This document shows positions 27,063 through 45,989 of a stretch of DNA of 57,892 bases, piece after piece. The DNA lies in the IMG/VR virus record IMGVR_UViG_3300048793_000013, positions 1 through 57,892 of that record; one strand, given 5' to 3'. The notes beneath the pieces were generated by a model, which saw only the letters and a program-made list of their open reading frames with translations, was not told the DNA's origin and ran no database searches. The position numbers and the translations under genes were made by a program. Source of the DNA: a virus (Duplodnaviria > Caudoviricetes). The first letter of the stretch is position 1; each line of letters begins with the position of its first letter.

Positions 27063-27116
27063 GATCCATACTTTCTTTTGTTAGCCGCCTGCTCTGTCAG
27101 ATATGAGGACGAAGAT

Positions 27117-27329: not shown

Positions 27330-27331
27330 TT

Positions 27332-27739
27332 TCACACCCCATCGCCTGGAAAGAAGCAGAACGGCAGATCGCCCCCGGTATTGAGAATAAAGATGACGAC
27401 ATGCCCGGTTGGATTTCCCTGACGCAGTTTGTCGATCACATCCGGTGAGATCACAAACCTCTGCCCGTTGCGGTTCTTGCGGCCTTGGATGATGCGTTCG
27501 TCCGTAACAGTAACGATCCATTGGCCGTCAACCGTTTCCGACTTGTCTGCCCAGAAGGCATCGGACTTACCGCAGCACTTGCCGCCGGTCGCGCCGGGCG
27601 CGGCGCCGGGCCACGGGTTGCGTTGCGCTTTCTCATACCAAGCATCAATCTCGGCATCGCCGGATGAAATCCAGTTCTCGGCGAGCGCGGGCGTGGCAAG
27701 CAGAAGGGAAATGGCGATGAGCCCATTTCGTAGGTGCAT
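27332..27739 (-). CDS. secreted Cys-rich protein
   Basis: signal peptide; CCGKSDA, NPTGHVVIF, FCFFPG; AGGAG RBS. Confidence 0.7.
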   Translation of the reverse strand: MHLRNGLIAISLLLATPALAENWISSGDAEIDAWYEKAQRNPWPGAAPGATGGKCCGKSDAFWADKSETVDGQWIVTVTDERIIQGRKNRNGQRFVISPDVIDKLRQGNPTGHVVIFILNTGGDLPFCFFPGDGV

Positions 27740-27885
27740 TCTATGCTCCTTTTGCCGCCGATTTTAGCATACGTCGAATTGCATGAAAAGCCCGCAAATC
27801 ACATTTTCGTTACCCGTAACTATTGGAGAATTTGCCAGAAACCCATGTAAAATGGCCATTCCTGACAATTCTCAAAAACTCAATA

Positions 27886-27894
27886 TGCTATAAT
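27886..27894 (+). promoter_or_regulatory. extended -10 promoter
   Basis: TGCTATAAT upstream of the lone rightward gene. Confidence 0.5.
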
Positions 27895-27956
27895 GCGTTT
27901 GTCGGGCTGGAAAACCCACCCGGCAGGCTGTTTGAAAATGTGAAAGGGGAATACCA

Positions 27957-28499
27957 ATGACTGAACGCTATCAGTCCGTCAACGGGGCGTGGCCGGAAGG
28001 TACACGAGACGGACGCGACCTCAAGCCAACACCACAAGAGGCTATCACTGCGGCCAAGAAGCTCTATCGGTTTGCCATGAAGCAGCCATTCCGTGGCAAG
28101 GTGAATCTGACGAGTGGACGACGCATCACATGGATCAGGAACCATGTGCTCCACGTCAACCCGGACGAACGCGACGGTGGGTGGCATGAGATAGTCCACT
28201 CCATGTCCCACTATTGCGCTCGAAAACTCTATCGCCATGCCGTGGGTTTCAAACCACATGACCACCGGCATGCGTTCTTAGAACGCACGATGATAGAGCA
28301 CGTCGTCAATTCGGGATGGCTTGAAGGAAAGCTACGGCGACCGGAAAATCCGAAACCTGAAAGCGATGTGAAGACCGTTCGCTACCAACGAACGCTTTCC
28401 AAGATTGAGACATGGGAGAAAAAGGCAAAGCGAGCGGAGAATGCATTGAAGAAACTTGTGGCAACGAAACGATACTATGAACGGACGATCTCAGTGTGA
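27957..28499 (+). CDS. hypothetical His-rich, possibly zinc-binding (SprT-like) protein
   Basis: WHEIVHSMSHY...PHDHRH; own promoter and terminator (moron-like). Confidence 0.65.
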   Translation: MTERYQSVNGAWPEGTRDGRDLKPTPQEAITAAKKLYRFAMKQPFRGKVNLTSGRRITWIRNHVLHVNPDERDGGWHEIVHSMSHYCARKLYRHAVGFKPHDHRHAFLERTMIEHVVNSGWLEGKLRRPENPKPESDVKTVRYQRTLSKIETWEKKAKRAENALKKLVATKRYYERTISV

Positions 28500-28503: not shown

Positions 28504-28535
28504 AAGGCCGCACTCTCACGGGTGCGGTCTTTTTC
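28504..28535 (+). terminator. intrinsic terminator between convergent genes
   Basis: AAGGCCGCAC / GTGCGGTCTT followed by a T run. Confidence 0.7.
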
Positions 28536-31500
28536 TATGCTCCCAATGTTACTTCGAGGTTGCCCCGCTCATGTGGAATTGGTTTGACATCCGGATTCGA
28601 CGGCGCATTAGGCGCCGCTTTCTTTTCAACGCTCGCCAACGCGCTACGACACCAAGCATTCCACTGGGAAATGTCGTAATCGTGTTCGGTAAGCCATTGT
28701 CGTTCGGCGATATTTCCGTGGTCTTTATGGGCGGTTTTATATATGACAACTCGCTCCTTACCGGACGGCTCACGCCCGTACTTTGTCTTGAAGGCTGCAA
28801 GGGCTTCCTTCATCGCCTTGTACTCTGCCACCTCATGACGAAGCAGCGGTTGAACCGGATCAAGCGGCTTGCCGTTGTTCATAATCCGACGCGGCAGGGA
28901 CTTGTCATAGTAGAAGATATCTCCCGCCTTGGAAAGTTCTGAAATTACGTTCACGTCATATGTGTGGTTGATTACCGGCCAATCATGATCGCTGTCTTTC
29001 AATGGCTTGGTGGTGTCGCCATTGGCCAACCAGTCCTTGAAGTCATCAATGGACATTTCTACCATATGGCCGAGTCGCTTGCCACCCTTCCCGTCAGAGA
29101 ATCCTTTGAGGTAGACGGCTTTGGCTTGGGCAGCAGAGCCGAACGCCAGCATGCATTTGTGCTCATCATACTTGCCGGTCTCAGCGTTCAATTGATCGAT
29201 GACAAACACCTTGCGAGAGGCACGGTGCGGCCCGACGTAGCAATCAACACAATCCTGATCAGCACCGGTAGTCCGCTTGAGGTAGCCATACGCCGCCGGC
29301 ATTGTGACGGACCAACGCTTATCATCAGGGCCGATGCCTGATCGTTCATGCCCCTTGGCATTTTCAATTGCGATATCGAGCCCGTGCACATTGATATGTG
29401 CCTTGCGATAGTTGCCAGCCTCTTTCTGTGCCTCAGTTGGGTTGCTGTCAATGTAGTGTGCCATGACGCGGCCACCTCTGGCGCGTTCCTCGGGGCGGGC
29501 CTCTCTCAATCTGTCCTTTGCACTATCCGATAGATAACGCCATTTGACCTTACCTGGAATATTGCGGCGATCGATCTTGTCGAGATAGTGAAGGCGCCCG
29601 GCCGACGTAAGTTCATTGTCCCACCATGCCTCATCGTCAACTTTAGGTGCCGTGGCCTCTTGTGGCTTAGATTCTGATGTTTGAGCCGAGGGCGATGGCT
29701 TGGCGGCTGGCGCTTGCTCACCCAACGGCTTATACAGCCGTGCCCCACGCATTTCCTTTGGTTCTGTGATTGGCGCCACCGGTTCGGACTGCTTGGCCTT
29801 CACCTCAGCAGAGTGCACGTCGGGATGCTTTGGCGCCTTGATGGCCTTAGTAAACTCATCCAGTTTCTTGAGAGATTCCTGATATTCTTTTTCCTTCGGC
29901 CATGCGGTCGTTAGTGTCTTTTCCAACCGCTCTACACTCTTTCGCTCGTTCGCTAGTTCTTTTTCCAGCCGAGTTGGGTTATCCTTAATGTTACCGAGAA
30001 TGTTTTCAAACCGGCGTATCAACCCGGCCGGGTCTGTATGCTCGTTGATGACAGTTTGGTTTACAGCGGCATATCTGGAATTTCCTACAAGTGACGGCGT
30101 TGCCTCTAACGAAGTACCGTCTCCATCCCAGACATGACGCAATTGAATGTTCATGTCAAAACCTGACATGCGGCCGACATTTACGACCTTCGGGGTATAG
30201 AACTTCTGTCCACCACCAAAAGTCTTCAGCCTATCAAGGATTTCATCCCCGGCTGCCTTGCGCTCGGTTATCGTCTTGCCGTCGAGATCGACTGCAAATT
30301 TCTTGCCGGAGGTATCCGTAACGCGGCCGGCATCTTCTTTCGCCCCAGGTAGTGCAGTTTCGTATTGCTCAATCCGAGACTTGGCGGCATTGCCTTCGCC
30401 AAACGCCCGAGACTTGGTTTGGTCGTACACCCGCTTTTGCGACGTGAGCATGCGCACATTGCGGTCAAGTTCGGCATGTTCCAGGATACGAGGATCACCC
30501 GACGCTGCGGCTTTCATCTGCGCTGCATCAGGCAGCGGGTTGTCGATGTCCTCTGCCCAACGAGAACCCTTGGCACCGGACATAACCTGATTGAGGAACC
30601 CGGCTTTACGCTCTAGCGTCTGCCACATGAAAGCGTCAAATGACTTCTCAGTCACATAGCGGTAGATATCGACGTTCGAGTTTAAGTTGCCTTGGCGGAT
30701 AATGCGGCCGTCACGCTGTTCAACTTCTGCCGGCTTCCATGGTGCGTCAAGATGGTGCATCGCAATCAGACGATCCTGCACGTTCGTGCCGACGCCCATC
30801 TTTTCTGTGGAACCCATCAGAACGCGGATATCGCCGTCGCGCACTTTCTTGAACAGCTTTGCCTTCTTGATGTCGTCAGTAGCGTCGTGGATGAAGGCTA
30901 TTTCATGGGACGGAATGCCCTTGGCTACAAGACGCTGCTTGAGATCATCGTAGACGCTGAAGTCAGACGCGCCTTCCTCATCCCCCCCCTCTTCAGCCGA
31001 CTTTGCCTTACCCTTCCTGGCATTCTTTGGCGTCCCCATGTCGAGGAACACCATTTGAACCGTTCCAGGCTCTTTTCCGTTTTCCCATATCTTGTGGATG
31101 TTGCCGACAGCCTTAGCTACCTTGCCTTGAGGATTGAAGTCGAAATCAGCTAGTGTCCCAGGATTTGGCATATTCGATAAAGCATATTGGTCCGAGACAT
31201 TGTTGCCTATAAGCCTACCGTCAGTTGCCACCTTGCGGGCCGCAGTGCCAACGCTTGCAGCCATGGGTGCGCCCTTCTCAGGACGCACTCCCTTTAATAG
31301 TTCAAGTGACTTGATAACCCCTTGAACAAAGTTCTCCTCCGCAGACGACAGCTTGGCATTTACAATATGCGTCTTGGCTTCCGGCGCTGGCAACTTGAGC
31401 ATGGCCGCTGTCTTGGTATCGGCAATTTCGGAATAGAGAGAAATCAACTCCGGGATGTTGACGAACCTGGAGAACGATGCAACGTCCTTGAATGTGCGGC

Positions 31501-34500
31501 CATCTTGCGACAACTCGGTGTTAGTTGCTACCTTACCGAACGTGTTTGCCCATGCATCGAACGTTTCAAGCCCGCGCTCCTTCAGCTTGTCGTATTGAAG
31601 GTACCGCTGCATGGTCCACATTTCGGCCATGGTATTCGATATCGGCGTGCCGGTCGCAAATACAGCCGATCGGCCCGGACGGTTCTGTTCTAGGTACCGC
31701 GTCTTGAGGAACAAGTCTTCGGCGCGCTGTGATGCATTTTGGGCAAGACCCTTGACGCGATCAAACCGCGTTATGAAGTCGAGATTCTTGTACTTGTGGG
31801 CCTCGTCCACATACATGAAGTCAATGCCAGACTCCTCGAATGTCGTACCTTCGTCCTTGCGTTCCTCGTTCATCAACTTATCGAGTTTTTTTCTGAATGT
31901 CTTCTTTCTCTTTTCCATAGCCTTTACGGTTGGAGAGTTTTTGCCGCCTTCCTGTTCTTCGGCCTTTTGAACGCGCTCTAGTTCGTCCATCTGGTCCCTG
32001 ATGAACTTCTCGCGGAAATCACGTTGCATGTTGATGCGGCCGAATGCATCGTGCGTAAAAATAACGCCGTCCCAGTCGTTCGACGCTACCTTGGCAAGGA
32101 ACTTCTTACGGTTGTCCCTTGTCATCTCATCCTTTTCAGCGACAAGAATTTTGGCGTCCGGATATGCCTGAATAAATTCGCGGGAGAATTGCTCCAGCAT
32201 GTGGTTTGGAACCACATAGGCAGGCTTGTTGATAAGTCCGAGGCGCTTCTGTTCCATGCCGGAAGCGATCATTGATACAGTCTTACCACTACCGACAGCA
32301 TGCGCCATCAGAGTGTTGCCTTTCTGGATAATCCGCCAAACGACATCAAGCCGATGCTTGCGACCAGCAAAGTCAGGATTTAGCCCCGGCAACGTCAAGT
32401 GCGAACCGTCGTGATTTTCACCAACTAGGTCATTGTGGAGGCGGTTATAGATGCCTTCCAACAATTGAGAGCGTTCCGGGTCCTGCCATACCCAACCCTC
32501 GATACCCTTCTCAGGATCGCCCGTGAATGCTTCCTTAAGCAGTTCTGTCTTGACGCGGGCTTCTTCGGTCTTCGTTGTGTTTACCGCCCTGTGGCCGTCC
32601 CTATCCGGCGGATCGCGGACGGTAATAGGGCGCCCATTCATTGCCGATTCGGCAATCTCATCTACCCCAACCTCTTTTGTCCCGTACTTGGCACGGGCGT
32701 CGCCATCGAAGTACGATGCCTTAACCCGCCAATCGCCCGTGACTGGCACCTTGACAACCTTGATGCCACCCCCGCCAATCTCTTTGAGAAAATCCTCATA
32801 GACCGCCTCAGGCACCCACGGAGCCCCGAATTGGGCCGTAATTTCGGGACCAACCAGCGGCGTAGGCTGTACCTTTTCGAGCGCTGCAACATTACGCAAG
32901 TATGATGGATCATTGGCGGCGATCGACCGGGCATCCTCCAGTTTTTTTATGACGTTGCCAGACAGATACCTTGACGCTGTTTCCCATGCACGCCCGTCCG
33001 GATTTTGAAAGACCGTATCACCCAACGCGCTGATTGCAGCCTCGTGACTGTCTACACCAAGCGACTGCGCAATATGGTCTAGGTCAACGCCACCTTTATC
33101 ATTGAGAGATGCAGCGAGAGCATCAGACGGCCCGTTAATCTGCCGTTCCATCGGAGGCCGGATGACATCCTTAGTGAAAATGTCGGCCAGCTTGGTTTTT
33201 CCAGTCTCGGAATCATAGTTCTCAATGGAAGATACTTTCCATGAGTCGGGATCATTCCGAAATGCCTTGAAATTTGGATGACGCACAAGAACAACATTCT
33301 CGCCAGCCTTGTTGAGGCGCGAGGTGACGGTCTTCTCTTCTTTATTGATTGGGCCGTAGAGATCGACGAAATTATCATACTTCTTGCGCAAATCGGCGCG
33401 GAGAGCATCCTTGTCGCCCACGCCATCAATCTGCGCTCGCATCAGATCGTTGTAGGTATCTCTAATTCCGATGAGTTTCTTAACACGGGACGCCTCGATC
33501 GTCCCTATATCATGCTCATGTCCCTGCCCTTCGCGACGCTGATAGAGCTTCCCATCCTTCAAGAAGAACGCGCCATCCTTGATTCCTGCGCCAATTTCGT
33601 TGCTGTGAATCGGCGGTGGTGGCGGCGTATCGCGCACAAGCATCGCCCCTGCCGGCATATCATTTCGCGCTGCCTCAGCAATCTTTTGTTGCATGCCATC
33701 AGGGTCGCCAATCAGAACAGGCTCATTAGCGCGATGTTGTGTGCCCTGTAGACGCATTTCCCCAAGCATCATTTGTGGACGGTCAGAAAAATACTCATTG
33801 ATCTTTGTTGGCCCTTCGGGGGTCTGAATTGTTTTCAAGTCTGTCCATTTTACCCCATTGAAAGGCTGTTCACCCGGAACTTTCTTGCGCAGGAAAATAA
33901 TATCAGTCGTTACCTGTGTGCCTGCGTTCGACGCAAAGGCACCCTTGCTGCCACCGGGAAGACGGATAGCGCCCACAAGATCGGAAGTGTTTGCCAGTAG
34001 ACGACGTACATTGGCGTGCGTAGGTGCGTCCATTGTGTGAGATGACGTGATGAACGACACGATGCCACCAGGGCGCACCTTGTCGAGCGCCTTGATGAAA
34101 AAGAAGTTGTGAATCGAGTGTGAACCGTATGGCTTTTCCTCAACAGGGTAGTTGCCAAACGGCACGTTTGAAATTGCCAAATCGTAGTGGTTTGCCGGTC
34201 GCTTCAAGTCTTCGAAACCGTGAACATTGACCTCGGCGCCACCATAGAGCTTCTTGGCAATGCGGCCGGTGACGGAATCCAACTCAACGGCCGTCCATGC
34301 CGTCTTTGGCGTCCATTTATCGGGAATCAACCCAATAAAGTGCCCTATTCCGGCCGATGGCTCTATGGCCATGCCACCTTCGTATCCGAGATGATCCATG
34401 GCATCCCACATGCCGCGAACAACATCAGGCGACGTGTAGTGAGCATTCGGTGTCGAGGCGCGGGCAGAATCATACTCTTCGTCGGTCAACAGGGCCTTGA

Positions 34501-37500
34501 GTTGGCCACGCTCAGCTTCCCACTGTTTCCGGTAATCCCCCTTGAACATATCTTGAGCGTGAGCACCCCAGCCGGTGTACTTGACCAGCTTTGCCTTTTC
34601 CTCTGGGGTCGCATCGCGATTTTCGTCCTCAATCTGCTTGAGAACCTTGATGGCCTCTATGTTGCCGCGAACTTTCTGCTTTGCTCCGCCCTCGCCAACC
34701 AAATCCTCATCGGTAATGCGATAGTTCGACCGCGAGCGTTCGGCGATCTTCAGTTCTGCGTCTCTTCGTCCTCTGATGACGGCGGGAGGGGCTGGTTTAT
34801 CAGTTCCTCCCTCACCAGTTCGTCCACCTCCATCCGGCGGTTTTGTAACGCTCTCACTTTTTCCAGGTGTGGGAGTTTCTGGACCTCCGGGGTGTTGAGG
34901 TATTGGTGCATGAGGCTCGCCAACCTCTCCTCGGCTTCCTCCCCCACCGAAGAGAGATAGTTGTTCAGGTCGCCGGACTGGCGTAGCTGCGCCAGCATTT
35001 GCGGGTTGGCGTCCTCCAGGAACTTGCGGTGCATTTCCGCGTAATCCTTCGCCGAGTACATCCTTTGGCCCTCCGAATAAGTCTTCCTGGCCGGCAGCGG
35101 TACGCTTCTTGGCCTGCATCAGGGGCGGTTGCTCTTCTCCCGGCCGGGCAGATTCAGCCGCCCTACGCGCCCCCGCTTCGAGGATGGCTTGCTCGTTGCC
35201 GATTGGTAGCGGCTCCGTCCGTAGTGGACGGCCCCTAACGTCGCGAGAGGCTACTTCTCTTCGGAGTTGATCGGCTCCCTGTTTTTCTACCCGTTCCGGG
35301 CCACCGGCCTCATCGACACGCCTCATGACTTCTTTCAACATTCGGCCTTTGAGCGCCTTGTATTCCTCTTTGTTCCCTCTCAGGCTAGCCTTGTCCCCAC
35401 GAAACGCAGACAATTCGTCAGCCGTCAACACCTTTGGATAGAATCTTGCCCATCCGACATAGGAAGGTGTGCGTACCGCAGCTTCTACGTCAAAGGTAAT
35501 GCCGTCACGGGTAAACGGCCCCTCGACCAGGAACCCCTTAGAAGACCCGGACGGGTAATCATCAACAGGGCGTGTCTTGCGCAACTTAAGCCCCGTGACA
35601 GTCTCGACTTTGGGATAATCACGTTCCGGATTCTTGGTCAGAAACCGAATATCCATATCGATCGGTTCGTTGGGCCTAACGCGGGCATAGGTGCGCGATA
35701 CGAGGGAGCCGCCCATGACAACTTTGATGTCAGGGCCGAGCTTGTCTTGCCACTCACCGGCAACCTTGTTGGCGGTTGAAATAAGCTTGCCGGCGTCAGG
35801 TTCTTCCGGCCTGAGTTTTACTGGGACTTTTGGTCCAGCAGCACGGAAGATTTTGCCTTGATCGCCTTCTCCGCCCGCTGCTTCAAGTCCTTCGCGGCCT
35901 TCGCCAACCCCGGATCGCCGTATTTGGTCGCCACCCGCTGGAACGCCCTCGCCATTACCAGGGCCATTGCGGTCGGGAACCTCTTCTCCATAGCCTTCCC
36001 ATCCTTTGTCACGAGCGATTTTCTGGATATCTCGCCGTTCAACCGGTGCCAGCCCTAGATCAAGTCCCGGTTCGGCCGTAACCTTGCGTGCCTCATCGGC
36101 ATAGAACCCAAGTGCATCACTAATCCTCTTGCTGCCAAGTGCCCGACGATTCCCCCGCATGTCAAGCTCAGGAGCATAGAAAGCCCGCATGAAGCCCTCG
36201 ACGGTATCAGGTATCTTATTGAAAGCATCTGACTGTGCCAAGTAGGTGTCGAGTTTTGTCCCCTCCCCACGGATTTTTGCCGTCCGCTTGACCGCTTCCA
36301 TGAGGTCCGGGGTGGCATCCATATCCGGCCGGACACGTCCTGCCTCGACATCAGCCCTCAATCTGGCCCATTTTGGTGCCACGGTTGCCAACGCATTGGA
36401 GATCGAGCGGATTTCATCATCCGTCGATTCAGCAATACGTGCTATCACCCCGACATCGCCGTATGCCTTGGCAAAGACGGCATTGCGCAACCGGGTAGCG
36501 CCTTCAGCCGATAACTGCCCAGATGCGTCCATAAGAGCACCTTGTTCGGCCTGGGGGAGTTCCTGGACGAAGCGGCGAACAAAATCACGGTTTGCCCCAA
36601 TATCATTTGGATTGTGCAGGAGATTGAGCGTCTTATCATCGATCAGCTTGGCATCGCCACGCGCTCGTTCGGTGGCCGACATGGCAAGCGTAGACGCCTG
36701 ATTAGCCCCGGCCGTGAAGGCTTGCCGCTCTTGTGGCGACATCGGCGTAATGCGCTGACGCACCAATACCGGATTGCGATACTGGGAAACGTCAACACCC
36801 TGCCGGGCGAGCCATTCACGGTATTCTTGAACCTTAGCCCCACCTTCGCCATAGACATTGCGAAGCGCTAATACTCGGCCGTTGCCACTCTCGACCATGC
36901 CGTCTGGGCCAACGATAGGCGCTCCGCGATCGGCTTCAGCGGAGTAGCCTAGACGCTCAGGATCGAGATTGGATGCAATATCGCGAACTTGGGCTTGGCT
37001 GGCTGCACGGCTGCGCTGGCGCGGCTGTAGGGCCTTGTCGTATCCGGCGTCTTGGGAGGTCTTGAGGCTGGAAGCCTCGACCACAACCGGCGCTACATCA
37101 ATGGCAGTACCGTCAGCGGTCGATACACGGTGCGGGCGTAGGTTGGAAGGCTCGGCGCCGATCAGCCCTTGGGCGGCGGCGAAGGGGGATGGTTCTTGGC
37201 CTTGACCATTGCCGCCAGCTTCGCTGTCGCCTCCTCGAAGTGCCGGCTGGACATCTCGTCCATTTCGGCTGGCGTCGGCGATTTCCGCACTGATGTGGTC
37301 GGCAAGTTGGCCATTTCCCTCAATTATCCTCGTTGGTCTCTCGGAAGTGTCAGCGTCTAGGAAGTCATTCGCCTCACCTCTCAATGTATAAGCGGTCTGA
37401 CGCGGTTTGTCACCAACTTCCTTGATGTAATTTGGGTCTACAAGCCGTCCGGTATCAAGGAAACGCTTGATGTTGCGGCGGCCGGAAATCTCAGGCGTTG

Positions 37501-40411
37501 CAGCAACATGGGCGATATCAACCGTATAGCCTGCCGCCTTCAGATTTTCGATTGACTTGCGTATTGTTTCGGCGTTGTGGCCCACCTTTGGCAGGATAAG
37601 ATTTGCACCTTCTATGCCGAGGTTGAAGAACACATCTTTGGCGAGTTCGGAGCTTTCCTCATGAACGGCTTGCGTTCCTACTCCGTTCTCGTATTCAGGG
37701 ATTACTTTCTTGGCTTCATCAGCGTCAACCAAAGCTGCTTTGTATCGACGGGCCAGTGGTTCGGAGATGGACGATTTGCCAGAGGCTGGAGGGCCGAGGA
37801 CAATGATGGCGTGACGGCCATTTTCGACCGGCCCCTTTGCAAAATCTTTAGCCTGTTCGGTCAACCGTTGAACGGCATCATCCCAGCCGTGAACTTTTTC
37901 GCCATTAAAGTTATAAACACGGGCATCGCGCCAGTCCGGATCGGCGAATTGCTCGGGCGAGCCAGTAGGAACACGGCTTCTATCGATTGCTACTTGACCC
38001 TGAACGTATGGGTGTTGTTCCAGTTCATCGAGCGGTGCCCCGCTGTCCAATGCGGCCTGTAGGCTTTCCCGATTGCCAGTCTGCGGTAGAGCGCCGGTCG
38101 GCCCGCGTGTCGGTATTGGAGGTGGCGTCGTTCCATTGTCTTGGTACAGACTACGAAGCGCAGCATCGCCTTCCGGCCCCTGCATCGTCCAAATACGAGC
38201 GGCCTCACCACGGATGCGATCATAAAGAGCTTTCTGCCCATCTTTTCGCTTTGCCAATTCCCGGCCGGCAAGTTTTAGTGCTCCTTTGGCAACGGTTCTC
38301 CACGGATGAGAAATTAGACCATGAGCGGTGCCGACAATGCCAGGACCAGTCTCAATGAGCGATCCAAGCGTATCCTCTTCGGGCGGCAACCAATGCTTGC
38401 TGTAGAGCCTGCGGGCTTGCGTCTCGCTATTGTCAACCAGCCGGTTCATGGAATTGTGCATACGGCGTTCGGCTTCTAGAGCCTTGAAGTAGCCATTTGC
38501 CTTTTCCTCACCAAGCAGTGCAGCGAGTTTTGCCCTGTTTGCGTCCGTCAATGCCTTCCCGAGCATTGTGAGTTCGCCGCCACGAGCACGATCGAGAACA
38601 CGGTTGAAATGCTTGGCCACACCTTGAATGGCAGCTTGCTTTTCTGGTTCGCCCATCCTTTCCAAAAGGTGAGGTATTTCAGATTCATCAAGCGTCGCGG
38701 ACAACAGCTTATCGCGGCCGAATTCATACGCCTTCATCACGCGCGTAATAGGTGCCCATTTCTCTCTTGCATCCCTCCATACACCACGAACGGCAGGATC
38801 AGGGTGGTTGTCGATCTCGTTTAGAAGGGCGTTTTTGAGCGTAAGCAGATGGCGGGCATTGTTCTTGTTACCGCTCCTAAATGCAGCGTCAATCTTGTCG
38901 TCAAGAGCTTCTTTTGCCAACTGGAACGCGCGTGCTGTTGGGATACGGTTTTCTTTGCCAAGTTCATCCTCAAAGCCCTCATCTATGGGCTTTCCCATGT
39001 TCTTAAGCTGACGATTAGCCTTGGCAGTCGCCGCCTTCATATCGGGGCGGGTGAGAATTTCCTTGAGTGCCTCAGTTGGTGCAATGCGTGTATCTTCAAA
39101 CGTCTTCCAAAAAGGAGCCGACTCATTCTTTCTGGCTTGCTTTTGCATACGAAGCCAGCCGGCCTCATTGACTTGCGGCCCAAGGTACTCGCTATTGATG
39201 TTCTGAATACGCTCTTTCTCTTCGGCACGGCGCTGTCTGTAGGATTGTCTGATTTCGGTGCTTGGCTGGCCTGGAGTGACCGCTATGCCGGCAGCATGAC
39301 GTTGCGTATCCTCATTCAGATCGGCATTGAATTCATGCCGAGACTTGTTCTCCGTAGCGGCCTCAAGTTCGTCGAGGCTACCAAAGTTATCCCTCAGAAT
39401 GTCGCCAACCATCTTCTTGGTTTCTGGCAACATTTCATCCAGCGCGCTCTGTGCCCGAGCAGCACCAACGCTATCATGGACGGGATCAGCTTCACCAAAA
39501 TGAGGGACTTCCGGCGATACAAGCCTTACGTTAGGATCAACCTTGTCGCGCCCGAAGGCAAATGGCGGAACCTCTGCCTCTCCCGGCTGTGCCGCCGCAA
39601 TCTTTTGTTCGTCCAGCAACTGTGAGAAATCTTGTGCGGGAGGCTGCGGCGCTTCCGGCTGTGCCGCAGCCTTTGCCTTATCTCCGCGTATTGATTGTTC
39701 ATGCGCTAGTCTTGCCTCAACCGCGTTCCTTGATAAATTGCCTGCCGCACTAGCGATTGGATGACCGGCCAACATACCGGCGAACCCTGCCACCTCTTCA
39801 TAGCCTGTCCCTTCAGCGGCTTTTTCAGCCGCAAATGCGCCAGTTGCAGGGGCAACGGCTCGCGTTAATAATCTTGTGGCGATGCTGCCGGGACCACCCA
39901 CGACAAATGGTAGGAATCCGCCAAGTTCCTGTAGATATTCATCGCTAGCAACAGGGGTACCGTCAGGATTGCGGCGCACTTCTGGGAGAGGCCCGGAGAC
40001 GTTTTGCTCAAACGGCTTAATGAAATCTTCCGGCTTGGGAAGCGATCTAATGCCGGGTGGTAGTGCACCATGCTCTTGTTGCAGTCTTTGATATTCGGCA
40101 AATTGTTCTGGCGATAGGGCTTTACCTGCGCCCCAATCCATAGCCCGGCCGGCAGCATCAGTCAGATATCCAGGTATTCCAGGAAGGCCAACGGTACCCT
40201 TGACAAGACCAGAACCAAGCTGCTTGGCCTTTTCGTAAGCCTCATTACTGGCAGCGTTAACCACATCGCCCACACCGAAGGCATTGCCATAGGTGCGATC
40301 TGGTTGAGGTTGTGGCTTGTCAGCCAAGAATGCATCAGGGTCAAACCCGCCACCTCCGCCGCCAGATGGCGACGTGTCATTCAGGAAGGCGTCGGGATCG
40401 AAATCAGCCAC
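28535..40411 (-). CDS. darB: giant DarB-like polyvalent virion protein (zeta-toxin kinase, ddrB-like ParB, nucleotidyltransferase, N6-adenine methyltransferase, SNF2 helicase, pyrophosphatase-like)
   Basis: GPPASGKS/VDAD; QPRQR..GAPIV..SGNGR; GGSL..DMD; EPSAGIG/SNVPF; AVGSGKT/DEAH/ATGTP/QRDGRIIRQG; EAGNYRK..YGY..GAD.D.VD..DEHK. Confidence 0.9.
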   Translation of the reverse strand: MADFDPDAFLNDTSPSGGGGGGFDPDAFLADKPQPQPDRTYGNAFGVGDVVNAASNEAYEKAKQLGSGLVKGTVGLPGIPGYLTDAAGRAMDWGAGKALSPEQFAEYQRLQQEHGALPPGIRSLPKPEDFIKPFEQNVSGPLPEVRRNPDGTPVASDEYLQELGGFLPFVVGGPGSIATRLLTRAVAPATGAFAAEKAAEGTGYEEVAGFAGMLAGHPIASAAGNLSRNAVEARLAHEQSIRGDKAKAAAQPEAPQPPAQDFSQLLDEQKIAAAQPGEAEVPPFAFGRDKVDPNVRLVSPEVPHFGEADPVHDSVGAARAQSALDEMLPETKKMVGDILRDNFGSLDELEAATENKSRHEFNADLNEDTQRHAAGIAVTPGQPSTEIRQSYRQRRAEEKERIQNINSEYLGPQVNEAGWLRMQKQARKNESAPFWKTFEDTRIAPTEALKEILTRPDMKAATAKANRQLKNMGKPIDEGFEDELGKENRIPTARAFQLAKEALDDKIDAAFRSGNKNNARHLLTLKNALLNEIDNHPDPAVRGVWRDAREKWAPITRVMKAYEFGRDKLLSATLDESEIPHLLERMGEPEKQAAIQGVAKHFNRVLDRARGGELTMLGKALTDANRAKLAALLGEEKANGYFKALEAERRMHNSMNRLVDNSETQARRLYSKHWLPPEEDTLGSLIETGPGIVGTAHGLISHPWRTVAKGALKLAGRELAKRKDGQKALYDRIRGEAARIWTMQGPEGDAALRSLYQDNGTTPPPIPTRGPTGALPQTGNRESLQAALDSGAPLDELEQHPYVQGQVAIDRSRVPTGSPEQFADPDWRDARVYNFNGEKVHGWDDAVQRLTEQAKDFAKGPVENGRHAIIVLGPPASGKSSISEPLARRYKAALVDADEAKKVIPEYENGVGTQAVHEESSELAKDVFFNLGIEGANLILPKVGHNAETIRKSIENLKAAGYTVDIAHVAATPEISGRRNIKRFLDTGRLVDPNYIKEVGDKPRQTAYTLRGEANDFLDADTSERPTRIIEGNGQLADHISAEIADASRNGRDVQPALRGGDSEAGGNGQGQEPSPFAAAQGLIGAEPSNLRPHRVSTADGTAIDVAPVVVEASSLKTSQDAGYDKALQPRQRSRAASQAQVRDIASNLDPERLGYSAEADRGAPIVGPDGMVESGNGRVLALRNVYGEGGAKVQEYREWLARQGVDVSQYRNPVLVRQRITPMSPQERQAFTAGANQASTLAMSATERARGDAKLIDDKTLNLLHNPNDIGANRDFVRRFVQELPQAEQGALMDASGQLSAEGATRLRNAVFAKAYGDVGVIARIAESTDDEIRSISNALATVAPKWARLRADVEAGRVRPDMDATPDLMEAVKRTAKIRGEGTKLDTYLAQSDAFNKIPDTVEGFMRAFYAPELDMRGNRRALGSKRISDALGFYADEARKVTAEPGLDLGLAPVERRDIQKIARDKGWEGYGEEVPDRNGPGNGEGVPAGGDQIRRSGVGEGREGLEAAGGEGDQGKIFRAAGPKVPVKLRPEEPDAGKLISTANKVAGEWQDKLGPDIKVVMGGSLVSRTYARVRPNEPIDMDIRFLTKNPERDYPKVETVTGLKLRKTRPVDDYPSGSSKGFLVEGPFTRDGITFDVEAAVRTPSYVGWARFYPKVLTADELSAFRGDKASLRGNKEEYKALKGRMLKEVMRRVDEAGGPERVEKQGADQLRREVASRDVRGRPLRTEPLPIGNEQAILEAGARRAAESARPGEEQPPLMQAKKRTAAGQEDLFGGPKDVLGEGLRGNAPQVPGGRQPANAGAATPVRRPEQLSLFGGGGSRGEVGEPHAPIPQHPGGPETPTPGKSESVTKPPDGGGRTGEGGTDKPAPPAVIRGRRDAELKIAERSRSNYRITDEDLVGEGGAKQKVRGNIEAIKVLKQIEDENRDATPEEKAKLVKYTGWGAHAQDMFKGDYRKQWEAERGQLKALLTDEEYDSARASTPNAHYTSPDVVRGMWDAMDHLGYEGGMAIEPSAGIGHFIGLIPDKWTPKTAWTAVELDSVTGRIAKKLYGGAEVNVHGFEDLKRPANHYDLAISNVPFGNYPVEEKPYGSHSIHNFFFIKALDKVRPGGIVSFITSSHTMDAPTHANVRRLLANTSDLVGAIRLPGGSKGAFASNAGTQVTTDIIFLRKKVPGEQPFNGVKWTDLKTIQTPEGPTKINEYFSDRPQMMLGEMRLQGTQHRANEPVLIGDPDGMQQKIAEAARNDMPAGAMLVRDTPPPPPIHSNEIGAGIKDGAFFLKDGKLYQRREGQGHEHDIGTIEASRVKKLIGIRDTYNDLMRAQIDGVGDKDALRADLRKKYDNFVDLYGPINKEEKTVTSRLNKAGENVVLVRHPNFKAFRNDPDSWKVSSIENYDSETGKTKLADIFTKDVIRPPMERQINGPSDALAASLNDKGGVDLDHIAQSLGVDSHEAAISALGDTVFQNPDGRAWETASRYLSGNVIKKLEDARSIAANDPSYLRNVAALEKVQPTPLVGPEITAQFGAPWVPEAVYEDFLKEIGGGGIKVVKVPVTGDWRVKASYFDGDARAKYGTKEVGVDEIAESAMNGRPITVRDPPDRDGHRAVNTTKTEEARVKTELLKEAFTGDPEKGIEGWVWQDPERSQLLEGIYNRLHNDLVGENHDGSHLTLPGLNPDFAGRKHRLDVVWRIIQKGNTLMAHAVGSGKTVSMIASGMEQKRLGLINKPAYVVPNHMLEQFSREFIQAYPDAKILVAEKDEMTRDNRKKFLAKVASNDWDGVIFTHDAFGRINMQRDFREKFIRDQMDELERVQKAEEQEGGKNSPTVKAMEKRKKTFRKKLDKLMNEERKDEGTTFEESGIDFMYVDEAHKYKNLDFITRFDRVKGLAQNASQRAEDLFLKTRYLEQNRPGRSAVFATGTPISNTMAEMWTMQRYLQYDKLKERGLETFDAWANTFGKVATNTELSQDGRTFKDVASFSRFVNIPELISLYSEIADTKTAAMLKLPAPEAKTHIVNAKLSSAEENFVQGVIKSLELLKGVRPEKGAPMAASVGTAARKVATDGRLIGNNVSDQYALSNMPNPGTLADFDFNPQGKVAKAVGNIHKIWENGKEPGTVQMVFLDMGTPKNARKGKAKSAEEGGDEEGASDFSVYDDLKQRLVAKGIPSHEIAFIHDATDDIKKAKLFKKVRDGDIRVLMGSTEKMGVGTNVQDRLIAMHHLDAPWKPAEVEQRDGRIIRQGNLNSNVDIYRYVTEKSFDAFMWQTLERKAGFLNQVMSGAKGSRWAEDIDNPLPDAAQMKAAASGDPRILEHAELDRNVRMLTSQKRVYDQTKSRAFGEGNAAKSRIEQYETALPGAKEDAGRVTDTSGKKFAVDLDGKTITERKAAGDEILDRLKTFGGGQKFYTPKVVNVGRMSGFDMNIQLRHVWDGDGTSLEATPSLVGNSRYAAVNQTVINEHTDPAGLIRRFENILGNIKDNPTRLEKELANERKSVERLEKTLTTAWPKEKEYQESLKKLDEFTKAIKAPKHPDVHSAEVKAKQSEPVAPITEPKEMRGARLYKPLGEQAPAAKPSPSAQTSESKPQEATAPKVDDEAWWDNELTSAGRLHYLDKIDRRNIPGKVKWRYLSDSAKDRLREARPEERARGGRVMAHYIDSNPTEAQKEAGNYRKAHINVHGLDIAIENAKGHERSGIGPDDKRWSVTMPAAYGYLKRTTGADQDCVDCYVGPHRASRKVFVIDQLNAETGKYDEHKCMLAFGSAAQAKAVYLKGFSDGKGGKRLGHMVEMSIDDFKDWLANGDTTKPLKDSDHDWPVINHTYDVNVISELSKAGDIFYYDKSLPRRIMNNGKPLDPVQPLLRHEVAEYKAMKEALAAFKTKYGREPSGKERVVIYKTAHKDHGNIAERQWLTEHDYDISQWNAWCRSALASVEKKAAPNAPSNPDVKPIPHERGNLEVTLGA
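34750..35061 (-). CDS. nested TnpV-like protein in the +1 frame of the giant gene
   Basis: YAEMHRKFLEDANPQMLAQLRQSGDLNNYL..VGEEAEERL...VRALQNRRMEVDELVREELI follows the TnpV pattern; GGAGG SD 8 nt upstream. Confidence 0.7.
   Translation of the reverse strand: MYSAKDYAEMHRKFLEDANPQMLAQLRQSGDLNNYLSSVGEEAEERLASLMHQYLNTPEVQKLPHLEKVRALQNRRMEVDELVREELINQPLPPSSEDEETQN
35818..35991 (-). CDS. nested 57-aa helical protein in the +1 frame of the giant gene
   Basis: MEKRFPTAMALVMARAFQRVATKYGDPGLAKAAKDLKQRAEKAIKAK...; AAGGATGGGAAGG upstream. Confidence 0.5.
   Translation of the reverse strand: MEKRFPTAMALVMARAFQRVATKYGDPGLAKAAKDLKQRAEKAIKAKSSVLLDQKSQ
37162..37314 (-). CDS. nested 50-aa protein in the +1 frame, directly after the zeta-toxin domain
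   Basis: MANLPTTSVRKSPTPAEMDEMSSRHFEEATAKLAAMVKAKNHPPSPPPKG; GAGGATAATTGAGGGAA upstream. Confidence 0.45.
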   Translation of the reverse strand: MANLPTTSVRKSPTPAEMDEMSSRHFEEATAKLAAMVKAKNHPPSPPPKG

Positions 40412-40414: not shown

Positions 40415-43400
40415 TTATTGTACTCCAAGCTTCTGTTTGATCGCGGCGGCGCGAGGATCATTCGGGTTAGCGTTAGCCCAAGCCAAGGCTTTCTGGTTCT
40501 CTGCGCTTTGTGCCACCGGGGCGGCGGCAGGAGTTGGGGCAGATGTTGGCGCAGTCGTGCCACCCGGCGCACCGGTAGCGCGTTCGGCACGTACCGAATC
40601 ACGTTCACGAGCAATCTGTTTTTGAAGTTGCATGACGGCACGCTTGTATGTCTCCGGGCTATCTGCCGTGCTAAGGAACCCAAGCGCCTTATCACGATCA
40701 GATTCACGCATGACACCGGTCGGGTTCATGGCGCGAGCCCAATGTTCAGCAAGCTGCAAGTTAGCCATACCGAATTCTTTCAGTTCAGGGTTGCTAGCAA
40801 TAATCTCTCCCTTCTGAATGATCTGGTTGATAGGTACCCAGCCGGTGCGCCATACTTTCTCTGAAGCCTCAATTGCGGCCGGAATAGCTGCATCCGTTGC
40901 ACGCAAGATCAGGTTCAGGTTGGCCTCACGATTGCCGCCAGTACGGGCTTCAGCGCCGAGACCAACACCCGTTGCCTTGTACTGTTGCTGAAGATGTGAC
41001 CGTTGTTCAGGGGAAATGCCAGCTTCTAAATCTTGGCGGGTAGCCTCTTCTCTGATCTTCTGCATCAAAGCAGGATCACGGCCGGCTTGACCAAGAGCGG
41101 ACGGACCCATGATGTTATACATGGAAGCAGTACGCTTGATTGTGTCTGGATCATATCCACTTTCACCAGACCGAGCGTCCATGCGGACAATAGCCAATGC
41201 CTTGACGTGCTCAGGATCAGCCGGGCCACCTGAAATTGGTTCAAGTTGGCCTTGGGCATTCAGTCGATAGCCGCTAGGAACACCAAGTTTGGCCATCTGG
41301 ATATCGTGTTGCCTCTTGGATTCATCCAATGTTCCAGTATGCTGACGGGTTGATTCAGCAAGCGTCGCCTGTGCTTGATCGGCGTGTTGCGCCAACTTCT
41401 TCACCTCAAGGTCAATCTGAGACTGCTTCATCTTCTGACCTTGTTCGAATTCATTGGCGTGCGTGTAGGTGCTCATCCCCTGTAAGCCACCTTCGCCGAC
41501 TGCCACGCCAGCAAATGGCGACCGAGATGCCATCATGCCAAACCCGGCCGACATTAGAGCGGGCCATAGCTTGGAGTTGGGCGACCAATCGATACCGCTG
41601 TTTGATGGTGGGGCAACGCCACGAGCGGCGGGGATATCAGATGTCCCTGGAATCCTGTAATCAGCTAGGGATGCGTTGGGCGGAACGGTGGAGTCTCCGT
41701 CTGGATTGCGCACCACGCCGTTGTTATTTGGCGCACCCTCACCCTTGGCGAGTTGGATGTGCCCTTGATCGATTTGACCAGCGTGGCCAGGAAGGAATTG
41801 CAAGCCGTATTTTTCGGCGTTGGTGCGACCATCATCGGAAGTCTTACGCAACCAATCGCGAACGGGACCACTCGATAGGTCTGCGGCTTCCCCGTATTGA
41901 TGGCGTGATTGTCCGGGAGGCGCGGCAAGGCCACCCTGGCCGGTCAAGTAATTATGGTAGGCTTGCGCTTGTTCCTCTTTGGTGCGGCCATAATCTAGCA
42001 CCTTAGCCGTGTGTCCTGTTGCCTCTTCCCCCGCCCGAATAGCGGCTTGGAGGCGATCGGCAAAGTTAGGGTTAAGATCGCCAGCGCGCCCAACTGCACG
42101 GCCGGTAGCGCGATCATGGAGAAAGTCTACCGTGTTGCTAGGGGCACCTACGCCAGCAGAAGGACCACCTGGAGGGGTAGCCACATTTATCGCGGGAGAT
42201 AGTGGAGGTGCAGAGGCTTCCGGTGCTCCCCACGCACCCGCAACGCCGTTGACAGGATCAATGCCCTTCGTCAACGGCATATCCCCGCCGCTAGGCGTTA
42301 TGCCAGGAGCGATACCAGACATCCAGGGTGGAGCGGACGATTGCCCGGTCGGTCCAGGCAGCGCAGCATCAACAGAAGCGTTTGTGGACGGCCCAAGCCC
42401 AACTACATCATTCGGTAGCGTCATGGCGTACCGATCGTTAGGATTACCCTTAAACGATCTATCGAACGTTGTTGGCGATCTACCAGACCAATTTGATATT
42501 TCCGTCCCTGATGGTGCAATGCCAGCCGTGGAAGTCGGCATATCTGGGTTAGGTCTGCGAATCGGTGTTGGCATTGGTCCGCCACCGAGTAGGACGTTCG
42601 GTAATGCGGGGCGTTGAGTTAGTGAATCTCCAATGTCAGGGAGGCTATCGTCACCAAAGTCCTGCACGGGCGGATAATAAGCCACCCCGCCGCCGTCATC
42701 GTATCCACGTGGCATCACGATCGTATTGTGCATCGGCAGGTTTGCCACACCACCGGACGCATACCCTCCAATGCGCCCACCACGATACGCACCATCTACA
42801 CCGAATGTCGGCGTTGGAATTGCATTACCGCTGGTATCATAGTTCAGGCCGGTAACGTTCGTGGCTCCCGGAACGATCGGATTTACGCCAGACGATTGTT
42901 GTGGTGCGCCATTGATGATCTTTGCCAGCGAGCCGATCTGTTGTGCCTGTTTGGCGAGATCAGGCTGTACCGGTGCACCGGGAGGCTTCGGCATATTGTT
43001 GCCATGCGCGAGGCCCATGGTCGGCACGAAGCCATTGCCGCCCGCATACGGCATAGGACCGGCACCATACGGGGCACCGGCTACACCCCCGCCGGTATCG
43101 TAATGAGAGACACGGCCACCCCATGCTCTCTTGCGACGATGTGCTAGAACATCGCGAATGTCTTCAACCCCAACACTATTGCCGGGAGATTTTGTGCGAT
43201 GCATGGCGGCAATCTGATGATGCGCCGTCATATGTGTTCCAGCCGCCGCGCGTACTTCTGTCCCGTCCGGTTGACGTTCAACTACAGCAAGAGGATGCTC
43301 CCCGCGATGATAGCGCGCAAGTACCTCATGTTTTGAAATAGGTCCCAGGTCAAGCAATTCATTCTCATGACCTTGGCCGGAAAGATGCTTAATACGTTCG

Positions 43401-44506
43401 GCATCAATTTCTTTGGGATTGTAATGGAAAACACCTCCACCAACTTTAACGCGTCCCATCCCATGCGGTACACTTAATTCTTGAGTGCCGTTCGGGAACA
43501 TTTGAACGCGACGGTGGCCGGCAATAAGCTGACGTTGTTGCGCGATAAGCGTATCGTGACTTTCTGGAACTGTGTTGTCGTCTGGGGCAACACCATGGCT
43601 TACCGCCGCCCCACCGCTCGCCAATCCCATTAGAGCGGGCGCCAGCCAACCTGCCGTACCAAAAGCACCTGTTCCACCAAGAGTTCCAACGGCAGCGGTA
43701 CCAAGACCTGCGATTTGTCCCAGTTGGTTAGGCGGCGGGGCCGTCGTGGTGGACGTACCACCCATTTGACTACCAAGCCCTGAATCTATACCTGCCAGCC
43801 ATTGACTTTGCTGATACGGGAAAGCCTGTTGGTTGATAAACTGCTGGTACGCGGCGGCGAGTTGCGCTTGCTGGGTTTGCTGTTCGAGAGAACCAGCGCC
43901 TACCTGTGCATTGGCACCCGTCAGCGCGGCGTTTTGTCCAGACACCCCGAGATTGCCGAGCGAATAGGCGCCAGCCGCTTGTGCTTGTTGCTCCGTCAGC
44001 GCGGTATTAAGGCCAGTCTGATAGCCCTGGTTTTCCAGGCCGGCGATTACAGGAGCTTGGGCAAGCTGTTGCTGGTTAGCCAAATTGGCTTGCGTGATGC
44101 CAACCCGGTTGCCGCCGAGCGCGCCTTGGGCCGCAGCATTGCTGAGGACGCCCTGTTGCTGTTGGGCATTCTGGTTATTGAATTGATTCTGCGTCGCATC
44201 GACAACGGCTTGCGTGTAGGGCGACTCGTATCCCTGAATCTGTGCCGCAGTGATAGGGCTGGCCGCCGCAGTAGCCATGCCGGTGGCTTGCTGGATGTAC
44301 GGCTGTGCAAACCCGGCGTTTTGGTTGATGTTGGCAATGCCGCTTTCTTGTTGAGGATTGACCCCGGCGACAAGTTGACCAGTATACGGCTGGTACGGCG
44401 TCGAGGCGACACCGGACGCACGGCTCATCAAGGCATAGTAGTTCGCTAGGGCGTCTGGGTTGGGGGTTGTGGTTTGCGTGGTCGTGTTCGAGCCCTTGCT
44501 GCCCAA
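40415..44506 (-). CDS. internal virion/ejection protein with an M15 peptidase (peptidoglycan hydrolase) domain
   Basis: MGSKGSNTTTQT and Q/A-rich N-terminus; GRTKEEQ..AAPPGQSRHQYGEAAD..KYGL..HIQL. Confidence 0.8.
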   Translation of the reverse strand: MGSKGSNTTTQTTTPNPDALANYYALMSRASGVASTPYQPYTGQLVAGVNPQQESGIANINQNAGFAQPYIQQATGMATAAASPITAAQIQGYESPYTQAVVDATQNQFNNQNAQQQQGVLSNAAAQGALGGNRVGITQANLANQQQLAQAPVIAGLENQGYQTGLNTALTEQQAQAAGAYSLGNLGVSGQNAALTGANAQVGAGSLEQQTQQAQLAAAYQQFINQQAFPYQQSQWLAGIDSGLGSQMGGTSTTTAPPPNQLGQIAGLGTAAVGTLGGTGAFGTAGWLAPALMGLASGGAAVSHGVAPDDNTVPESHDTLIAQQRQLIAGHRRVQMFPNGTQELSVPHGMGRVKVGGGVFHYNPKEIDAERIKHLSGQGHENELLDLGPISKHEVLARYHRGEHPLAVVERQPDGTEVRAAAGTHMTAHHQIAAMHRTKSPGNSVGVEDIRDVLAHRRKRAWGGRVSHYDTGGGVAGAPYGAGPMPYAGGNGFVPTMGLAHGNNMPKPPGAPVQPDLAKQAQQIGSLAKIINGAPQQSSGVNPIVPGATNVTGLNYDTSGNAIPTPTFGVDGAYRGGRIGGYASGGVANLPMHNTIVMPRGYDDGGGVAYYPPVQDFGDDSLPDIGDSLTQRPALPNVLLGGGPMPTPIRRPNPDMPTSTAGIAPSGTEISNWSGRSPTTFDRSFKGNPNDRYAMTLPNDVVGLGPSTNASVDAALPGPTGQSSAPPWMSGIAPGITPSGGDMPLTKGIDPVNGVAGAWGAPEASAPPLSPAINVATPPGGPSAGVGAPSNTVDFLHDRATGRAVGRAGDLNPNFADRLQAAIRAGEEATGHTAKVLDYGRTKEEQAQAYHNYLTGQGGLAAPPGQSRHQYGEAADLSSGPVRDWLRKTSDDGRTNAEKYGLQFLPGHAGQIDQGHIQLAKGEGAPNNNGVVRNPDGDSTVPPNASLADYRIPGTSDIPAARGVAPPSNSGIDWSPNSKLWPALMSAGFGMMASRSPFAGVAVGEGGLQGMSTYTHANEFEQGQKMKQSQIDLEVKKLAQHADQAQATLAESTRQHTGTLDESKRQHDIQMAKLGVPSGYRLNAQGQLEPISGGPADPEHVKALAIVRMDARSGESGYDPDTIKRTASMYNIMGPSALGQAGRDPALMQKIREEATRQDLEAGISPEQRSHLQQQYKATGVGLGAEARTGGNREANLNLILRATDAAIPAAIEASEKVWRTGWVPINQIIQKGEIIASNPELKEFGMANLQLAEHWARAMNPTGVMRESDRDKALGFLSTADSPETYKRAVMQLQKQIARERDSVRAERATGAPGGTTAPTSAPTPAAAPVAQSAENQKALAWANANPNDPRAAAIKQKLGVQ

Positions 44507-44517
44507 CTCAATTACTC

Positions 44518-45961: not shown

Positions 45962-45989
45962 TGTCGAAACATCCCTTCGTCTTTGGTTA

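Follow-up and report, generated by a model that had tools for sequence, protein, structure and literature searches.

Rz1 of phage lambda, which lies inside Rz, is a phage gene embedded on the same strand as its host gene. A pair of this kind, with one gene embedded in the other, has also been described as Rz/Rz1 in Burkholderia phage CSP3 (PMC10269572). Here we describe a comparable arrangement in a giant polyvalent DarB-like gene on a stretch of 57,892 nucleotides (nt) from a virus of the Caudoviricetes (IMG/VR virus record IMGVR_UViG_3300048793_000013, positions 1 to 57,892), which is called the window throughout. This gene very probably harbours real small genes, read in the +1 frame, within two of its interdomain linkers; they are named here after their open reading frames (ORFs) ORF2 and ORF3, would be expressed by internal initiation and would have arisen by read-through fusion. 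A third frame, ORF1, belongs to this reading as a chance frame. As in Rz/Rz1, a longer gene encloses the whole of a small one, which has its own start and reads in the +1 frame of the same strand, and neither frame has been lost. Unlike in Rz/Rz1, the host gene is a polyvalent gene of ~12 kb with two embedded genes, and here the embedded frame appears to be the older one and to bear the family, with the host frame as a passenger.

Polyvalent proteins of phages and conjugative elements were described by Iyer et al. 2017 (PMC5512222), and Zeta_toxin, ddrB-ParB, methylase-SNF2 and InPase are typical domains that they have in common with the gene of the window. The main text of that paper holds zero mentions of TnpV, overlapping, frameshift or linker. 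The text passages that treat the DarB-like genes of JC1 and CSP3 make no mention of an embedded gene (PMC9144972, PMC10269572), and our literature search, which covered main texts, found no relevant account of genes embedded in polyvalent or DarB-like genes. In phage P1, the Dar accessory proteins Hdf, DarA, DdrA, DdrB and Ulx are likewise small proteins encoded with a DarB-type methylase-helicase that is virion cargo, which we use as an analogy only. According to PMC12810830, packaging of the P1 Dar proteins follows an order, and EcoB and EcoK restriction is the target of Ulx, DarB and DdrB; homologues of the P1 Dar helpers were reported in PMC9144972 as not found in Bcep22-like phages. The family found below for ORF3, TnpV (PF14198), is that of mobilisable transposons of the Tn4451/Tn4453 type. 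Its role in transposon excision was only postulated, from its likeness to lambda Xis, and the passages on TnpV in the same source describe it on Tn4451-type transposons without any DarB-like gene (PMC3158075).

The features of the locus are as follows.

28535..40411, minus strand: giant polyvalent DarB-like gene, 3958 amino acids (aa), from the ORF list, its translation and Pfam domains

34750..35061, minus strand: ORF3, a predicted TnpV-family protein of 103 aa in the +1 frame, acidic with an isoelectric point (pI) of 4.7, five helices (Pfam, PHROG, AlphaFold2)

35069..35074, minus strand: Shine-Dalgarno (SD)-like motif GGAGGG, 7 nt before the ORF3 ATG (sequence motif)

34750..35061, minus strand: main-frame linker across ORF3, residues 1784-1887 of the giant protein, a passenger frame kept open

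35818..35991, minus strand: ORF2, a predicted basic (pI 10.4) helical hairpin in the +1 frame, of a family of ~57-66 aa (profile, AlphaFold2)

35994..36000, minus strand: purine-rich motif GGGAAGG, 2 nt before the ORF2 ATG (sequence motif)

37162..37314, minus strand: ORF1, a 50-aa ORF (+1 frame, Zeta-to-ParB linker), most readily explained as open by chance

The three ORFs were found as the original prediction had described them: all are minus-strand frames that begin at offset +1 relative to the 3958-aa gene. The residues of the giant protein (the main frame) under ORF1, ORF2 and ORF3 are 1033-1083, 1474-1531 and 1784-1887, the main frame there is rich in G, P, R and E, and a purine-rich motif stands ahead of each of the three ATG codons, as had also been noted. 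The giant protein is made up of a Zeta_toxin-like kinase, ddrB-ParB, a nucleotidyltransferase (NTase)-like stretch, a methylase, an SNF2 helicase and InPase. Pfam domains were matched at residues 867-1010 (Zeta_toxin) and 1100-1220 (ddrB-ParB) and, on the C-terminal side, at 2696-3241 (ResIII/SNF2/Helicase_C) and 3660-3795 (InPase). The small genes had been placed in linkers between catalytic domains, and indeed ORF1 comes after Zeta_toxin, ORF2 after ddrB-ParB and ORF3 just before the methylase/SNF2 part; the NTase that was to separate the last two gave no Pfam match, only a GS...DxD-type motif being visible by eye in the translation.

The giant gene contains 29 same-strand ORFs of at least 40 aa in alternative frames. 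In order to judge openness, the protein of one frame was fixed, synonymous codons were resampled in 1000 trials and the openness of the other frame was scored. With the main-frame protein fixed, the probability of an open +1 frame in the window was 0.20 for ORF3, 0.63 for ORF2 and 0.64 for ORF1, and it was 0.15-0.64 overall. An open +1 frame in such linkers is by itself unremarkable and is expected by chance. What goes beyond chance is homology and conservation, and these are held by ORF2 and ORF3 only, so that the proposal of three overprinted small genes was borne out for these two, by family and conservation, and failed for ORF1, which has neither.

ORF3 matched Pfam TnpV with an E-value of 3.9e-13 and 49.8 bits (gathering score 27) over profile positions 25-111 of 111, and phrog_24764 with an E-value of 1.6e-9, while ORF1 and ORF2 gave no match to TnpV. 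A word-indexed search returned six small relatives of ORF3. A TnpV profile search of 1.84 billion representatives gave 446 matches at E<=1e-3, the best 150 of which are 44-338 aa long; among these best 150 of the 446 matches TnpV is, by predicted length, a small stand-alone protein and never a domain of a giant one. The AlphaFold2 model of ORF3, based on a 13-sequence alignment, has five helices with a predicted local distance difference test (pLDDT) score of 88.3 and a predicted template modelling (pTM) score of 0.74, and the pI of 13 TnpV-like family members ranges from 4.4 to 6.9. No match at E<=0.001 was obtained with Foldseek against the PDB for the models of ORF3 and ORF2, the top Z of 6.7 in the VIA wide structure search with the ORF3 model lies within the stated noise for helical models, and a search of solved structures by sequence gave no match for the TnpV-like protein. 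The DNA search with the ORF3 region gave one 81-base match in GenBank phages and none in PLSDB plasmids, and tblastn with the ORF3 of the window returned zero phage records and only two Subdoligranulum plasmid records at 33% identity.

Like TnpV of the transposons, the product of ORF3 is small (~100 aa) and encoded on a mobile element; it differs in that its gene lies wholly inside another gene, in the +1 frame. The Xis-like role postulated for TnpV, for which a small basic winged-helix DNA-binding fold would be expected of a recombination directionality factor, is unsupported for ORF3, which is acidic, has an all-helical model and has no significant match to a solved structure. No recombinase was present among the genes in the annotated part of the window. 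We also considered TnpV as an in-frame domain that had been displaced by two indels or an assembly error, and rejected this candidate, as the layout is common to seven independent assemblies and long proteins are absent from the best 150 relatives.

ORF2 was first recognised as conserved when the giant genes of the window and of two other viral contigs (L017 and L018) were aligned; in each of the three, the +1 frame of the ParB-distal linker gave a conserved protein. A profile of these three sequences retrieved 11 database proteins with E-values of 6e-27 to 1e-17 and no Pfam domain on record. The resulting alignment of 14 sequences has 14 invariant columns, the pI in the family ranges from 9.1 to 11.5, and the AlphaFold2 model of ORF2 is a two-helix hairpin of fair quality (pLDDT 77), that of ORF3 being a confident one. 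ORF2 matched neither a Pfam nor a PHROG family, tblastn gave no match in GenBank phages or PLSDB plasmids, and by sequence only designed helical proteins were found among solved structures, with no usable match in the ESM Atlas. ORF2 is the founder of a predicted protein family that was not described before. It lies upstream of the TnpV-like gene wherever both regions were covered, that is, in the window, L017, L018, L013, L021 and the broken L014.

For the comparison of homologous giant genes, 16 other contigs were collected by searches with the ORF3/TnpV and ORF2 families and with the methylase part of the giant protein. Six of them (L017, L018, L008, L013, L015 and L021) are intact, with the main frame open over the fetched locus and an intact +1 ORF. 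L015 ends at a contig edge. The comparison set comprised seven giant genes for ORF3 and five for ORF2, that of the window included; the giant homologues of L017 (5394 aa) and L018 (4947+ aa) were aligned with the giant protein of the window. A plain BLAST of alternative frames between homologues is distorted by the nucleotide conservation of the domains; it was replaced by a frame-contrast scan, in which the giant proteins were aligned in the main frame, a bias against alternative frames, and compared in sliding windows of 40 codons. An alternative frame exceeded the main frame in 12 of 275 sliding windows between the window and L018 and in 7 of 245 between the window and L017, all of them in ORF2 or ORF3 and all in the +1 frame. 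Between L017 and L018 an alternative frame was better in 8 of 395, seven in the ORF2/ORF3 regions (three narrowly +2) and one elsewhere with negligible scores. Outside ORF2 and ORF3 the median BLOSUM score per column was 3.0-3.5 for the main frame and 0.75-0.95 for the +1 frame.

When the embedded proteins were aligned, identity and BLOSUM score were higher in the +1 frame than in the main frame in all 21 ORF3 pairs and all 10 ORF2 pairs. The overall identities in the +1, main and third frame were 0.514, 0.438 and 0.431 for ORF3 and 0.507, 0.385 and 0.373 for ORF2; with an identity at about the level of the third frame, the main frame is about as conserved as a non-coding frame. Nucleotide differences at +1 codon positions 1, 2 and 3 were 0.354, 0.320 and 0.415 for ORF3, the third being the most variable and the second the least, and 0.391, 0.338 and 0.446 for ORF2; the second position of the +1 frame is the third of the main frame. 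With three sequences alone, such per-position counts were too saturated to decide. Naive NG86 omega, which was used solely as a contrast between frames, was below 1 for the +1 frame throughout, with 0.21-0.89 over the 21 ORF3 pairs and 0.20-0.76 over the 10 ORF2 pairs. Main-frame values were above 1 for 18 of the 21 ORF3 pairs and for 9 of the 10 ORF2 pairs. The alignment of homologous giant genes had been proposed as a check of the original prediction, and for ORF2 and ORF3 it gave intact +1 frames with omega below 1 in all 31 pairs.

The reverse resampling gave a different result from that for the +1 frame. With the ORF3 protein fixed, the probability of an open main frame was <=0.001 in all seven loci (1000 resamplings per locus), and with the ORF2 protein fixed it was 0.04-0.08 in all five, and the third frame has stops at all these ORF3 and ORF2 loci. 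As the main frame is kept open against the odds, the giant protein is apparently really read through the ORF2 and ORF3 stretches, which would thus be dual-coding. These comparisons showed ORF2 and ORF3 to be under purifying selection at the protein level, and the main frame over them to be a low-complexity passenger, for which staying open is the only constraint visible in the alignments.

Two further observations were made in the homologous giant genes. The L017 gene has a 323-aa open frame in +2 over residues 4477-4799 with alternative-frame similarity to L018 (69 and 67 bits), which is probably a by-product of main-frame conservation, as no scan window was flagged there. The L018 protein has an Intein_splicing domain (Pfam, 2.1e-10) at ~2559-2901 within the SNF2 helicase, and the gene of the window is without one.

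Cultured copies of the TnpV-like frame were reached only via the methylase domain together with the TnpV profile. The methylase domain search gave 120-122 GenBank phage records, of which 15 were examined, and with our own TnpV profiles a TnpV-like ORF was found in the +1 frame in 12 of them, namely Bcep22, Gamede, PEp14, Pavtok, Itty13, LASTA, POI1126, Atu_ph08, VvAW1, PBC5, Mwe-JY07 and MT835923. It lies directly upstream of the methylase domain in 10, ~550 nt upstream in Atu_ph08 and ~1.7 kb upstream in MT835923; the remaining records (P1, phi-SgaBSJ31 and BKO1-TP3) gave no TnpV-profile match. Pfam TnpV was the top match for 8 of 10 cultured-phage ORFs tested. In ten cultured-phage ORFs the ATG stands at one aligned column with SD-like motifs upstream, the N-terminal half is conserved, and the main frame is open in all ten loci. 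The BLOSUM score favoured the +1 over the main frame in 38 of the 45 pairs of these ORFs. Four close pairs of cultured phages had an omega of 0.25-0.39 in the +1 frame and 1.0-2.4 in the main frame. The embedded ORF is listed in none of the annotated GenBank records examined; Itty13 and PBC5 annotate the region differently and MT835923 is without annotation.

In Sinorhizobium phage PBC5 (NC_003324.1; L025 1-1997 and 1421 onward) the DarB-like gene is annotated as two coding sequences (CDS), and the methylase frame is open only from 1421. Either the gene is truly split or frameshifted in this phage, or the old sequence contains an error. The record of Itty13 (MW460249.1, L023) has three 'hypothetical protein' CDS on the strand opposite to an open DarB-like frame that matches the methylase of the window, probably a mis-annotation of the giant gene. 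Bacteroides phage BKO1-TP3 (L037) has, at ~2230-2490 and just upstream of the methylase domain, a +1 ORF of ~85 aa that is plausibly helical and gave no profile match, and this may be another embedded family.

The starts of the small genes were also retained. In all seven loci that cover the start, the ORF3 ATG lies 6-12 codons ahead of the conserved core and has an SD-like motif of the GGAGG type, and in all five nested loci the ORF2 ATG lies 3-7 codons ahead of a conserved PTA motif with GGGAGG, GGGAAG or GAGGG upstream. In the window, the ORF3 ATG overlies an Asp-Val codon pair of the main frame. A +1 stop stands 1-6 codons 5' of the ATG in L017 (ORF3), in L018, L013 and L021 (ORF2), and in PEp14, Pavtok, LASTA and VvAW1. 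A frameshift route would have little space there, which speaks for internal initiation, and each small protein would be made at its own SD motif and ATG on the mRNA of the giant gene.

A number of points weigh against this reading of ORF2 and ORF3. Ten of the 16 contigs have no intact giant ORF (L004-L007, L009-L012, L014 and L016): TnpV is complete and flanked by main-frame stops in L004 and L014, N-terminally truncated in L006, L007 and L016, and broken by stops or frame changes in L005 and L009-L012. We interpret these ten as decayed remnants, several of them in contigs of bacterial metagenome-assembled genomes. The loci compared are few (seven and five) and some are closely related (L013, L015 and L018). 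Standard omega is biased in overlapping genes (PMC4316641), and the alignments for identity and omega were guided by the +1 protein, although the scan guided by the main frame agrees. Among the cultured phages the Pfam matches (E 1.2e-4 to 0.14) all lie below the gathering score (12.6-22.4 bits vs 27) and two of the ten ORFs had none, while only 32 of 45 pairs had a higher identity in the +1 than in the main frame, and only 31 of 45 an omega below 1 in the +1 frame. In the window, the SD-like motif of ORF2 has a short spacing of 2 nt from the ATG, and we infer internal initiation and translation of the embedded frames from the conserved ATG codons and SD-like motifs. P1 Ulx was tried as a relative of either small protein and rejected, with no sequence similarity to the TnpV-like or ORF2 profiles.

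Two other explanations of the +1 frames were weighed against internal initiation of real genes. The +1 sequences could be alternative C-termini that are reached when ribosomes slip into the +1 frame, giving truncated N-terminal fragments of the giant protein. Such products could be accommodated by the ~20 codons over which the +1 frame of the window is open ahead of the ATG in both ORF2 and ORF3, and by gp22 of PBC5, an annotated upstream CDS in the TnpV frame that ends at the TnpV stop. They are nevertheless improbable, since the aligned position of the ATG and SD-like motif is shared by all seven ORF3 loci, all five ORF2 loci and all ten cultured phages compared, the nearby +1 stops leave almost no space for a slip site in several loci, a conserved slippery motif was not seen, and the TnpV relatives (best 150 of 446) are small stand-alone proteins. 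Still more improbable is that chance opened all three frames in the G/P/R/E-rich linkers, or that they are genes which were trapped recently and are in decay. This is how ORF1 is validly read, and both the unremarkable openness of the +1 frame (0.15-0.64) and the 29 same-strand alternative-frame ORFs are in keeping with it. For ORF2 and ORF3 the explanation is refuted on the evidence of the alignments: ORF3 has a family-level match and both belong to conserved families, the +1 frame beats the main frame only in their regions of the whole gene, bar the one negligible sliding window between L017 and L018, omega in the +1 frame is below 1 in 31 of 31 pairs, the starts are retained, and the layout recurs in distant cultured phages.

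ORF1 had been proposed as the antitoxin of the zeta kinase, and nothing was found in favour of this role, for which an epsilon/PezA-type protein would be expected. It gave 0 Pfam and 0 PHROG families at E<=10 (PADLOC and NCBIfam were outside this search) and no homologue in a search of 5.8 billion proteins. The Zeta-to-ParB linker is of variable length among homologues, and in the only two homologues that cover the region the ORF1 ATG is missing (L018) or the linker is non-homologous (L017), so that neither start nor sequence is kept in the two comparable giant genes. Smith-Waterman scores in the three frames of the ORF1 region were 36, 41 and 36 against L018 and 26, 31 and 41 against L017, with no difference among frames. 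ORF1 is best read as a chance open frame. In the Zeta-to-ParB linker of L017 (residues ~905-960), the +1 frame is similar to the C-terminal end of the TnpV-like protein in L014 (L014 1017-1262) and the main frame resembles the L014 read-through into the ddrB-ParB domain; this linker may be a relic of a TnpV-overlap linker before ParB, a hint of module shuffling at these linkers.

The layout would result from the fusion of neighbouring genes, with read-through of small intervening genes in another frame. A TnpV-like gene would formerly have stood directly upstream of an ancestral darB-type methylase-helicase gene, and the conserved methylase module begins where the TnpV frame stops. A family signal and purifying selection in the frame of the small gene, with the main frame as a passenger, fit a fusion of contiguous genes in which a stop was lost and the small gene was read through in another frame. 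Stop loss followed by read-through in another frame is named as a fusion route in PMC2268670. The suggestion that effectors were fused by reading through a partner gene therefore agrees with the architecture of ORF2 and ORF3, with their family signal and +1-frame selection, and does not extend to ORF1.

As to function, the original prediction saw in the small proteins a built-in antitoxin or chaperone system, which would restrain the neighbouring zeta kinase, NTase and methylase in the producing cell and be left behind at injection. The small genes indeed share a locus, and would share a transcript, with domains that are potentially toxic; like many antitoxins and chaperones, both products are small and helical, the TnpV-like one being acidic and that of ORF2 basic. 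A TnpV-like ORF also stands upstream of the methylase module in the seven giant genes of the clade, that of the window included, and in 12 of 15 GenBank records (directly in 10), and P1 DarB requires small accessory proteins (PMC12810830). We nevertheless regard such a system as rather unlikely. Its supposed zeta partner, ORF1, has neither conservation nor family, the occurrence of TnpV on transposons described without a DarB-like gene (PMC3158075) argues that its role is not intrinsically tied to a methylase, and the fixed position of the embedded gene follows from inheritance alone. The pairing of ORF2 and ORF3 with the NTase, as an MNT/HEPN-like toxin-antitoxin pair, also fell: in L018 residues 1535-1737 of the window's protein are replaced by ~60 residues, ORF2 and ORF3 are spaced 265 nt apart in L013 and 388 nt in L021, and in these three loci both ORFs are retained where the NTase domain between them is gone. 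A predicted complex of the TnpV-like protein with ORF2, run without controls, had a score of 0.01 (mark 0.32) and speaks neither way on binding. By analogy with the P1 Dar proteins it is possible, if speculative, that the small proteins are accessory factors of DarB-type cargo, in its folding, capsid loading or control; P1 differs in that its darB methylase domain has no TnpV-like ORF nearer than 2.5 kb.

The genome to which the window belongs is podophage-like, and the product of the giant gene is probably a virion cargo protein. The neighbouring gene (40415-44506, 1363 aa) has a PHROG match to 'DNA ejection protein', with virion structural genes farther on. The region upstream of the giant gene (40415-57842) comprises this gene, virion structural proteins and HNH and homing endonucleases, and on the other side (26226-28499) a 180-aa ORF on the opposite strand is followed by an endolysin. 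This gene order around the giant gene is like that given for Bcep22-like podophages in PMC9144972. A promoter and terminator scan of 34500-37500 was at background, with 2 promoter-like sites vs 1.0 expected and 3 terminator-like sites vs 3.5.

New here are ORF2, as a second embedded gene, and the dismissal of ORF1. The locus represents a clean natural case of read-through gene fusion, in which the older gene would survive in the other frame and the new frame serve as a linker only. Giant DarB-like genes make up a fifth of the genome in many cultured podophages and are annotated as single CDS. If they carry conserved embedded genes, annotation overlooks a protein family that is widespread in phages, any knock-out or truncation of the giant gene would have a hidden second effect, and the unknown helpers of DarB-type anti-restriction cargo would gain a concrete candidate. 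As a tentative and wider suggestion, the low-complexity linkers of giant polyvalent and DarB-like genes may generally be out-of-frame read-throughs of working small genes, and the injected methylase-helicase may depend on the TnpV-like protein, here together with ORF2, as an obligatory cofactor, so far missing, for its folding, loading or control. If this is true, the TnpV-like and ORF2 proteins would be the counterpart of the P1 accessory Dar proteins in Bcep22-like and related phages, where none were found.

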